The position numbers and the translations under genes are program-made. From the NCBI GenBank assembly GCA_002399235.1, contig DHDH01000001.1:97366-161365 (forward strand): a DNA stretch of 64,000 nt, read 5' to 3'. Within the stretch, counting starts at the first letter, position 1; each line of letters starts with the position of its first letter. Below are positions 37,422 through 38,345 of the stretch, piece by piece. The notes beneath the pieces are model-generated. The model was not told the origin of the DNA and made no database searches. It saw nothing but the letters and a program-made list of their open reading frames with translations. The stretch is from Firmicutes bacterium UBA4881 (GTDB lineage: Bacteria; Bacillota; DTU065).

Positions 37422-38345
37422 GTGCGCAAGCTAGCTTAGTATTCATCGCCTTATGAGGTTACAGACTGGGGTTATTGTCTGTATAGGCAGACACCTTACT
37501 TAAAGGTTAACGACCTTTAGGGACAATAGCATGGTGTAAAAGCGGGAGTTGGTTTTAGTCGTAAAAGATCAACGTTCTGCAAGCCTAAGCACTATATGGT
37601 CAAAGCTATACTGCTTGAATCCTAGAATCTTAGCCCAGCCACGGGGGACTCCATACTTTACGGCTAAAATGGAGTTGTTGCTGAATCATCGATAGAGGCT
37701 GTTTGTATCGATGAAACCCCTTTAGCAACCAATGTGCAATTAGCACCTTAAGATTCGAAAGGGAGACCTAAGTAGTGCCAGTGAAACTAAGTGAATCTTG
37801 GATGCTTCGCAAAAAAGGGTTAAACCCACTGCGGAGTACGGAGCTGTCATAGTAATCTGAGGAACCTGGATAAACAGGTATTGCCGTAAATTCGGAAGCG
37901 GGAAAGCCGCCTACACACCTATAGACGTATAGGTGACACCTTGGCTTAATAGCCCAGAGAATAAGGTGCTGGTGAAGGACAGCAGGTTAATAGTTACCAG
38001 AAACTTAGAGGTATGCGCAAAGCAGAAAACTTCGAGGGCCTGGTATTAGCGAGAATGTAACTTGGTATCTTAGACAATAAAGTTCTTTTTATTCCAGGAC
38101 ATAGGGGAAACCTCCCCAGAGAGAGTTGCGTTTACTTATTAGGAATATGAAGAAAAATATAGTATCAAGATGCCTGGTTAGGATTAACTATAATCAGCAA
38201 AGAGGACTAGCCCAAGATAGTTCCTACATTATAGTTGTTTCTCGCTGTTATTAACAGAGAGCCGTATGCGGGGAAACTTGCACGTACGGTTCGGAGGGGG
38301 AGGTCGGGAGAAGTGACACTAAGGTGTTAACTCGCCTGTCTTCTA
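37422..38345 (+). mobile_element. Group II intron 2 in nrdJ, ORF-less
   Basis: 5' GUGCG at 37422. Domain V GAGCCGTATGCGGGGAAACTTGCACGTACGGTTCG at 38260-38294. A 3' CUAC. No ORF of 60 aa or more on either strand. It shares internal blocks with intron 1 (CGGAGCTsTCATAGTArTC). The 3' boundary is uncertain by about 9 nt. Confidence 0.8.

Follow-up and report, generated by a model that had tools for sequence, protein, structure and literature searches.

In the cyanobacterium Trichodesmium erythraeum, the group II introns of nrdJ (RIR) and dnaN share an intron-encoded maturase (Liu et al. 2003 and Meng et al. 2005, as cited in PMC4649490 and PMC4143802). LtrB introns from which the open reading frame (ORF) has been removed (deltaORF) are spliced by a reverse transcriptase (RT) supplied in tandem from outside the intron (PMC3898094), and bacterial ORF-less introns are nearly always accompanied by a related intron-encoded protein (IEP; PMC4424553). 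In IIA introns the main IEP-binding region is the domain IV element DIVa (PMC2882425). Here we describe a locus with a comparable layout in Firmicutes bacterium UBA4881. It lies in a stretch of 64,000 nt (64 kb) of contig DHDH01000001.1, which is referred to as the window and to which all positions without a locus name refer. The gene in question, nrdJ, encodes a class II (B12-dependent) ribonucleotide reductase (RNR; 35331-39770, plus strand) and is divided by two group II introns into three exons. Intron 1 contains in its domain IV the gene for a 253-aa maturase without RT, and intron 2 is ORF-less. We propose that intron 2 would be spliced with the help of the intron 1 protein, which would be translated from the same nrdJ pre-mRNA upstream of intron 2. 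The evidence is circumstantial and comes from sequence comparison; on this basis the proposal seems to be the best single explanation of the locus, and we assign to it a probability of about 0.5.

That intron 2 is a real and well-defined element can hardly be doubted. It begins at 37422 with GTGCGCAAG, the initial GTGCG fitting the 5' GUGYG, and its insertion point NPCGEQ^PLL lies between the nrdJ codons for NPCGEQ and PLLPYE. In an earlier note, made from the sequence of the window, the intron had been placed at 37422-38345 with a length of about 924 nt. The start was correct, but position 38345 is occupied by the branch-point A. The last base of the intron is 38351, which gives a length of 930 nt (plus strand). 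The Rfam model RF00029 (Intron_gpII, domains V and VI) matches 38257-38351 with 67.1 bits (gathering threshold 40). Domain V (DV, 38259-38292) fits the consensus with its 34 nt, AGC triad and 2-nt bulge; domain VI (DVI) follows up to the 3' splice site after 38351 and has a bulged A, the branch point, 7 nt from the last base of the intron. The statement of the same note that there is no ORF of 60 aa or more was confirmed, since the longest ORF overlapping intron 2 has 48 aa, and profile searches with ORF-like segments of at least 60 aa inside the intron revealed no similarity to IEPs.

The exon-binding sites (EBS) of intron 2 are intact and match the intron-binding sites (IBS) in exon 2. EBS2 (GCCACG, 37638-37643) pairs with IBS2 (UGUGGU), EBS1 (CUGUUU, 37699-37704) pairs with IBS1 (GAGCAG), and the adjacent delta base G37698 pairs with C38352, the first base of the 3' exon. 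EBS1 and EBS2 together cover the last 12 bases of exon 2. Over 12 members of the intron family found at this insertion point (site 2), both pairings covary, as does the EBS1 hairpin stem. Examples are ACCGCA with UGCGGU for EBS2 in the loci L023 and L037, and UUGUUC with GAACAA for EBS1 in L023, L037 and L031. The consensus fold of domains I to III (D1-D3), derived from the alignment of the 12 members, has 179 pairs with 97.5% of the cells canonical. Compensatory double changes were found at 65 of the 179 pairs, compared to 10-15 in controls with shifted partners, and the six ORF-less copies alone still give 53 such pairs (6-8 in the shifted controls); these counts are inflated because the consensus structure came from the same alignment, but the contrast with the controls remains large.

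Domain IV of intron 2 starts with a basal stem, read off the sequence, in which the 5' strand GUUAAUA (37986-37992) pairs with 38249-38255; the equivalent stems are GUUAAA/UUUAAC in L004 and GCCAGU/ACUGGC in intron 1. Within it lies a DIVa remnant (38008-38033) composed of a GAGGU/ACUUC stem, a UGC/GCA stem and a GCAAA loop, in which the start codon has become AAG (38020-38022). The rest of domain IV (38034-38248) is fast-evolving filler without an ORF, and its similarity is undetectable between sub-lineages. When the window is compared to the related locus L001, identity amounts to 96% in D1-D3, 99% in domains V and VI, 29 of 30 positions in DIVa and 81% in the remaining domain IV, at a proportion of synonymous differences (pS) of 0.30 in the maturase gene. 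In summary, intron 2 has the features of a functional ORF-less group II intron and is predicted to splice.

The relatives of intron 2 shed light on its origin. Over D1-D3 it aligns end to end, with 66-72% identity, with ORF-containing introns located at NPCGEQ^PL of RNR genes in Bacillales and other Clostridia, whereas intron 1 aligns with it only in patches. Full IEPs of the type RT-X(-En) with 533-610 aa are encoded in introns of 2.36-2.62 kb in L024 (Bacillus rubiinfantis), L028 and the metagenome contigs L036, L039 and L040; in these cases the presence of intron 1 is not a meaningful character, because the host gene belongs to a different lineage (Bacillales RNR). A full IEP of 546 aa with RT and domain X is also found in Clostridia-type nrdJ genes without intron 1 (L043/L044). 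A third group, likewise without intron 1 (L023/L037/L038, L045 and L042), has introns of about 1.7 kb (L023, L037) with RT-dead IEPs of 334-386 aa, in which LGEE or FGAE replaces YADD; comparison of L023 with L037 gave a ratio of nonsynonymous to synonymous substitution rates (dN/dS) of 0.17, indicating purifying selection. ORF-less copies of 744-1139 nt with DIVa are present in the window, L001/L002, L004/L005/L021/L030 and L017/L035, and all of them coexist with intron 1. Finally, L041 harbours an ORF-less copy of 581 nt without DIVa and without intron 1. Traces of the lost ORF are still visible. The copies in L004, L005 and L021 retain about 120 nt alignable with the 5' part of the L024 ORF, where ACG stands in place of ATG; in the window about 45 nt are left and the ATG has become AAG. 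From the alignment with the same-site family and from these remnants of its ORF it follows that intron 2 did not arise by duplication of intron 1. It is a decayed descendant of an RT-encoding, retrohoming intron family specific to the NPCGEQ^PL site of RNR genes. In the clade of the window the ORF was destroyed by mutation of its start and by deletion or randomisation of most of domain IV, while the ribozyme domains, the EBS and DIVa were conserved. The earlier note had called the two introns siblings. This is true for their common ML/IIA lineage (see below), but a recent shared origin is not supported, since intron 2 fits the same-site RNR introns end to end.

Several members of the site-2 family deserve a separate description. 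The intron of Virgibacillus soli (L031, 4326-6887, minus strand) has 2562 nt and an IEP frame that stops after 42 codons; this reflects either recent pseudogenisation or a fault in the assembly. In the 581-nt intron of L041 (1702-2282), also located at NPCGEQ^PL, domain IV has shrunk to GGUUGAUUAGUAACC, DIVa is absent and the region of the EBS2 hairpin has been lost. This intron is a candidate for a minimal IIA ribozyme, or for a client of another factor. A site-2 variant in L046 (1974-2388) and L047 (1340-1754) has a large AT-rich insertion in domain III, consisting of two similar units which each end with TTAAGGCCAGCAA; both contigs break at an identical position, about 80 nt into domain IV. 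The Bacillales RNR gene hosting the full-length site-2 intron contains, in addition, a group I intron upstream (RF00028; L024:3357-4061 and L040:141-527), which in L024 includes a 111-aa ORF with a helix-turn-helix motif, and L040 has a further group II intron downstream (4049-6615; RF02004 and a second DV, with its own RT ORF). RNR genes are an intron hot spot.

The family is not restricted to these loci. At least 14 distinct nrdJ products of 276-315 aa (P0134-P0155), some from contigs of up to 2.4 Mb, end with NPCGEQ[VL]RK[IV]A followed by a stop, and therefore site-2 introns are widespread in nrdJ genes without intron 1 in uncultured Firmicutes. Metagenomes further contain many 'MQxAExVL...' proteins of 330-420 aa with domain X and degenerate RT motifs (P0006-P0010, P0034; L042:3115-4119; L045:1564-2640). 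RT-dead maturases of the ML type therefore appear to be more common in bacteria than the single degenerate bacterial IEP listed in a review of 2015 (PMC4424553) would suggest. A related intron with the DIVa motif of the nrdJ introns was detected in L026 (2850-5300, minus strand), where it interrupts the P-loop codons of a parA/soj-like gene and encodes a 577-aa IEP starting with VCEMQTAETILG. The canonical GUGCG was not found at its expected 5' junction, and it was excluded from the comparison.

The putative helper is encoded by intron 1 (35562-36827, plus strand, 1266 nt), an LtrB-like group II intron with a maturase ORF in domain IV. RF00029 matches at 36769-36827 with 63.0 bits (gathering threshold 40), domains V and VI extending over 36771-36827. 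Orthologues are present in L001, L004, L005, L017, L019, L029 and L035, and a consensus fold was obtained. EBS2 is located at 35724-35730, delta at U35765 and EBS1 at 35766-35770. In the distal stem of its domain V (36781-36794, GCUUC GAAA GAUGC) there is a U-U mismatch, flagged by Rfam as a non-canonical pair; the same position is G-U in L001, and the stem is fully paired in L004/L005. The DIVa hairpin (35984-36012) contains the Shine-Dalgarno (SD) sequence GGAGG (35985-35989) in its 5' strand, and a UGC/GCA stem with a GUAAU loop holds the AUG 35998-36000. This ATG, 8 nt downstream of the SD sequence, is the likely start of the protein, whose gene comprises positions 35998-36759 on the plus strand (253 aa plus stop).

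The intron 1 protein consists of an RT-0/N-terminal RT remnant and domain X (thumb). No match to RVT_1 and no YADD were detected in it, and RT blocks 3-7 are absent. It is collinear with the site-2 IEPs through RT-0 (compared to RLYRNLFNPDFY) and an IxDxRF block and then passes directly to domain X, which is 31% identical to that of a site-2 IEP. The C-terminus carries the canonical X motif, and in a profile search of the PDB the X domain of LtrA was the sole match (E 0.009). The score against PF01348 (Intron_maturas2) is 18.8 bits, below the gathering threshold of 20.8, and the L017 orthologue reaches 21.9 bits. Thus, the view that the neighbouring intron encodes a domain-X maturase stands, and in the window we found no other IEP-like ORF and no domain V besides those of the two nrdJ introns. 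The family is small: a set of 5.8 billion proteins contained 3 clusters, and one of 1.84 billion just 2 representatives below 1e-30. The reading frame is intact in six diverged orthologues, and dN/dS values of 0.065-0.31 for pairs with unsaturated dS indicate purifying selection. An AlphaFold2 model based on a 4-sequence alignment had a pLDDT of 47 and was confident only for two long helices of the X domain (residues 193-238). By these features the protein is a maturase-only, RT-degenerate IEP of the MatK/O.i.I2 type.

To which class do the two introns belong? The IEP of the site-2 intron in L024 matches LtrA over residues 9-492 with an E value of 7.5e-116 (391 bits), compared with 1e-35 for T.el4h and 6e-40 for GsI-IIC, and it passes TIGR04416 with 308.7 bits (cutoff 300). 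It is 46-50% identical to LtrA-like IEPs on Firmicute plasmids, and both IEP families match PF01348 instead of GIIM. A DIVa stem-loop with SD sequence and start codon, which is a IIA trait, is present in the ORF-containing members, and the element is kept in intron 2. IEP lineages co-evolve with ribozyme classes. Because of this established co-evolution and the IEP matches, both introns can be assigned to the LtrB-like ML lineage, subgroup IIA, with weak support for intron 1. The delta-delta' pair, G-C in 12 of 12 site-2 introns and U-A in every copy of intron 1, is a single invariant pair, which would fit recognition of the 3' exon in the manner of IIA introns. A IIB/CL class for both introns, suggested by GUGCG and by Rfam matches to plastid domains V, was ruled out by the LtrA match of the site-2 IEP. 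The Rfam models of D1-D4 subfamilies gave just one sub-threshold match (RF01998, 20 bits), from which no class can be assigned. The earlier note had named membership in different structural classes as an argument against a common maturase; according to the assignment above, the two introns do not differ in class.

The same note had based a common ancestry of the introns on the shared GUGCG, a near-identical domain V and internal blocks, and had proposed a pairwise alignment. We performed the comparison by sensitive blastn and by alignments within each family, since a global MAFFT alignment is misleading due to the long gaps forced by the ORF. Instead of an end-to-end alignment, just four short collinear blocks were obtained: DV with the start of DVI (38 of 44 identical); the 3' strand of D3 with the base of D4 and DIVa (55/86); a D1 block (intron 2 positions 164-204; 30/41); and J2/3-D3, where 35905-35926 of intron 1 correspond to 37839-37857 of intron 2 (19/21). 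The last block, comprising J2/3 and the 5' strand of domain III of intron 2, is the one quoted in the note. The similarities are therefore present, but most of them are not specific for this pair. A scan of 185,579 species genomes with the shared pattern of DV and the start of DVI yielded 24 stretches, and some of them belong to introns from Thermodesulfobacteriota, Ktedonobacteria, Alphaproteobacteria, Xenorhabdus and Citrobacter. Several of these unrelated introns equal or surpass intron 1 in matching the D1 block of intron 2. GUGCG, domain V and the D1 block characterise the class as a whole, and the sole similarity of intron 2 to intron 1 that is missing from the unrelated introns with the same DV is the stretch of D3, D4 base and DIVa.

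DIVa is also the element which could connect intron 2 to the intron 1 protein. Its 16-nt motif RGGTWTGCNNAANGCA occurs exactly twice in the 64 kb, at 35987-36002 and 38009-38024, once per intron, while 0.01 occurrences are expected. Among 40 loci the motif is confined to the two families of nrdJ introns (intron 1 and site 2) and a single parA intron related to them. The element is predicted to form a small hairpin with the SD sequence as 5' strand and, in ORF-containing members, the AUG in the loop or inner stem. It was kept in all three ORF-less sub-lineages co-resident with intron 1, in which the remaining D4 measures 55-362 nt; between the window and L004 or L017 this remainder shows random-level identity. 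When the DIVa loops of the two introns were compared genome by genome, no clear pattern of co-evolution was seen. Further, a site-2 intron that is alone in nrdJ usually retains its own RT-dead IEP, and because such lone copies keep this IEP under purifying selection, the site-2 ribozyme lineage probably needs a maturase. The gene of the intron 1 maturase is situated 660 nt to 1.4 kb upstream of intron 2 on the same transcript. Since both introns share one pre-mRNA, the nascent maturase would be made beside its putative second substrate. There it would attach to the DIVa hairpin that intron 2 has kept and so stabilise the catalytic fold, similarly to LtrA acting in trans on Ll.LtrB-deltaORF. 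As intron 1 comes from a different intron lineage, this would require a somewhat relaxed, MatK-like specificity. More tentatively, the intron 1 protein may have become a bacterial MatK-like general maturase, which took over the heterologous intron 2 after the loss of its IEP.

Several observations weigh against splicing of intron 2 by the intron 1 protein. The 581-nt intron of L041 is ORF-less in an nrdJ without intron 1, and with the ORF it has also lost DIVa and the EBS2 hairpin; loss of the ORF therefore does not strictly require the intron 1 maturase. The two introns are distantly related, as their ribozymes can be aligned in core motifs only and the domains X have the low identity given above, and an IEP usually acts on its own intron specifically (PMC2882425). 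In L019 and L029, both without intron 2, the maturase is conserved to the same degree, and thus its conservation is explained by cis-splicing of intron 1 alone. The ORF-less copies that occur together with intron 1 may go back to one ancestral event, so that the co-occurrence counts as approximately n=1. The DIVa hairpin is supported by invariance and thermodynamic prediction without covariation, its inner stem being invariant and its outer stem out of register between the families. Last but not least, the searches for IEPs and domain V in this genome cover the 64 kb only.

It could also be that intron 2 needs no IEP at all, but splices by itself in vivo or with general host RNA chaperones, in which case DIVa would be kept for RNA folding or would simply not yet be deleted. 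Both routes have been proposed for C.te.I1 of Clostridium tetani, which provides a precedent of a self-splicing ORF-less bacterial intron (PMC4424553). In line with this, the ribozyme of intron 2 is well conserved with intact DV, DVI and EBS sites, and the ORF-less intron of L041 occurs without intron 1 and DIVa, although L041 may use a factor encoded elsewhere in its genome, of which 6.7 kb were seen. On the other hand, LtrB-type introns require their IEP for splicing in vivo (PMC3898094), the RT-dead IEPs of lone nrdJ relatives are under purifying selection, and the DIVa core was retained in three sub-lineages in which the remaining D4 is saturated with changes. We regard splicing without an IEP as less likely than splicing by the intron 1 protein. 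Less probable still is that a closer RT/maturase elsewhere in the genome, for example one from a full-length intron of the ML type carried by a plasmid or mobile element, splices intron 2 in place of the intron 1 protein. Our view of the genome is limited to 64 kb, Firmicute plasmids often carry the LtrA-like IEPs with the identity to the site-2 IEP given above, and in bacteria an ORF-less intron is usually accompanied by a closely related copy with an ORF (PMC4424553). Nevertheless, the window offers no other IEP-like ORF or domain V, and in the related metagenome-assembled genome JAHDNZ01 a genome-wide scan with the DV pattern matched the two nrdJ introns only. Moreover, the two-intron layout is vertically conserved in at least three sub-lineages, each of which would need to have kept a mobile helper.

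A last alternative is that intron 2 has lost the ability to splice, with nrdJ being a pseudogene or another RNR taking its place. In view of the exons this is very improbable. Nothing speaks directly for it, and other RNR classes could lie outside the window. Exon 1 (35331-35561, plus strand) ends with the codons for PNSPTLM and contains IBS2 (UCCCACU) and IBS1 (UGAUG) of intron 1; exon 2 (36828-37421) encodes NAGRE to NPCGEQ and ends with the IBS of intron 2; exon 3 (38352-39770) starts with PLLPYEACNLGSINL and runs to the stop codon. When joined, they encode an unbroken NrdJ of 747 aa. Both junctions exist naturally in uninterrupted form: exons 2 and 3 are contiguous in the intron-less allele L019 (NPCGEQPLLPYEACNLG) and likewise in L029, and exons 1 and 2 are contiguous in L023 (PNSPTLMNAGREL). 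Across the clade the exons are intact and in frame with 80-100% amino-acid identity, the ribozyme helices of the ORF-less copies show compensatory changes, and the EBS sites match their exons, all of which argues against a dead gene. Splicing of intron 2 with the help of the intron 1 maturase remains the reading which we prefer.

In the surroundings of nrdJ, genes for SpoIID, a SleB-like LysM hydrolase, spore maturation proteins and flagellar proteins were found, and therefore the lineage of the window is considered to be a spore-forming Bacillota. Upstream of nrdJ (28456-32305, minus strand), a 929-aa DnaE2-like error-prone polymerase is encoded beside a 280-aa ORF, which we take as ImuB-like because its counterpart in L005 has a faint match to the Pfam family IMS_HHH_1. 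This pair is also present in the related loci L004 and L005.

The locus is of interest for several reasons. Three features which have each been described as rare in bacteria, namely group II introns in housekeeping genes, introns without an ORF and RT-degenerate IEPs, are united here in one Bacillota clade. The relatives form a graded natural series of IEP decay at a single homing site, and the putative helper, a very small protein without RT, comes from a different intron lineage. If the intron 1 protein indeed splices intron 2, the locus would be a compact, tractable bacterial model for the relaxation of maturase specificity (as in MatK and nMAT) and for the conversion of intron-specific helpers into shared splicing factors. 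If it acts as a MatK-like general maturase, a free-living Firmicute would have an essential gene whose two immobile, vertically inherited introns rely on one protein from the same pre-mRNA. The site-2 series (full RT, RT-dead, ORF-less with DIVa, and mini-intron without DIVa) would then be a living record of how a common splicing apparatus is approached step by step, something usually documented in organelles only. If, alternatively, the protein is not involved, intron 2 and the 581-nt intron of L041 are candidates for naturally protein-independent IIA ribozymes.

Among the described systems, the nrdJ and dnaN introns of Trichodesmium and, as natural analogues, LtrB-deltaORF seem to be closest to this locus. 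As far as the Trichodesmium work is represented in the citing papers, there too a class II RNR gene contains several group II introns with a maturase ORF in only some of them, and splicing of ORF-less housekeeping-gene introns by the IEP of another intron was demonstrated in E. coli, which for our locus is a proposal. The host is a spore-forming Bacillota instead of a cyanobacterium. The title of Meng et al. speaks of 'similar introns', whereas here donor and recipient belong to different lineages with separate homing sites, and the maturase has just 253 aa and no RT. Accordingly, introns 1 and 2 lack the close similarity of donor and recipient of the Trichodesmium and Thermosynechococcus elongatus type; in common with that type, intron 2 has no IEP ORF in domain IV, and the genome encodes a related IEP at another place. 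The intron TeI3 of T. elongatus, which is mobilised by the IEPs of TeI4, has also become ORF-less by deletion in DIV with ORF remnants and the DIVa region kept, and the TeI4 IEPs have relaxed specificity (PMC2882425). However, TeI3 is a mobile, multi-copy intron of the CL/IIB1 type, while intron 2 is single-copy, vertically inherited, immobile and located in an essential gene.

Like chloroplast MatK in the trnK intron and like O.i.I2 of Oceanobacillus iheyensis, a degenerate ML-class IEP in radC (PMC4424553), the intron 1 protein is intact and under selection within an intron of a cellular gene. It differs from both in being shorter (253 aa) and in having kept an RT-0-like N-terminus with RT 3-7 completely lost. 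MatK serves several IIA introns, and for the intron 1 protein such a role is suggested here. C.te.I1 resembles intron 2 as an ORF-less group II intron in a Clostridia genome and is the model for self-splicing and for the L041 intron; its genome has no IEP gene (PMC4424553), in contrast to the maturase gene located here upstream on the same transcript. With Ll.LtrB-deltaORF and LtrA supplied in trans (targetron), intron 2 shares the IEP lineage, the removal of the domain IV ORF with DIVa kept, and a source (putative for intron 2) of the protein outside the intron on the same transcript. In the case of intron 2 the deletion is natural, mobility is not expected, and the putative helper is a heterologous RT-less protein and not the cognate full-length RT.

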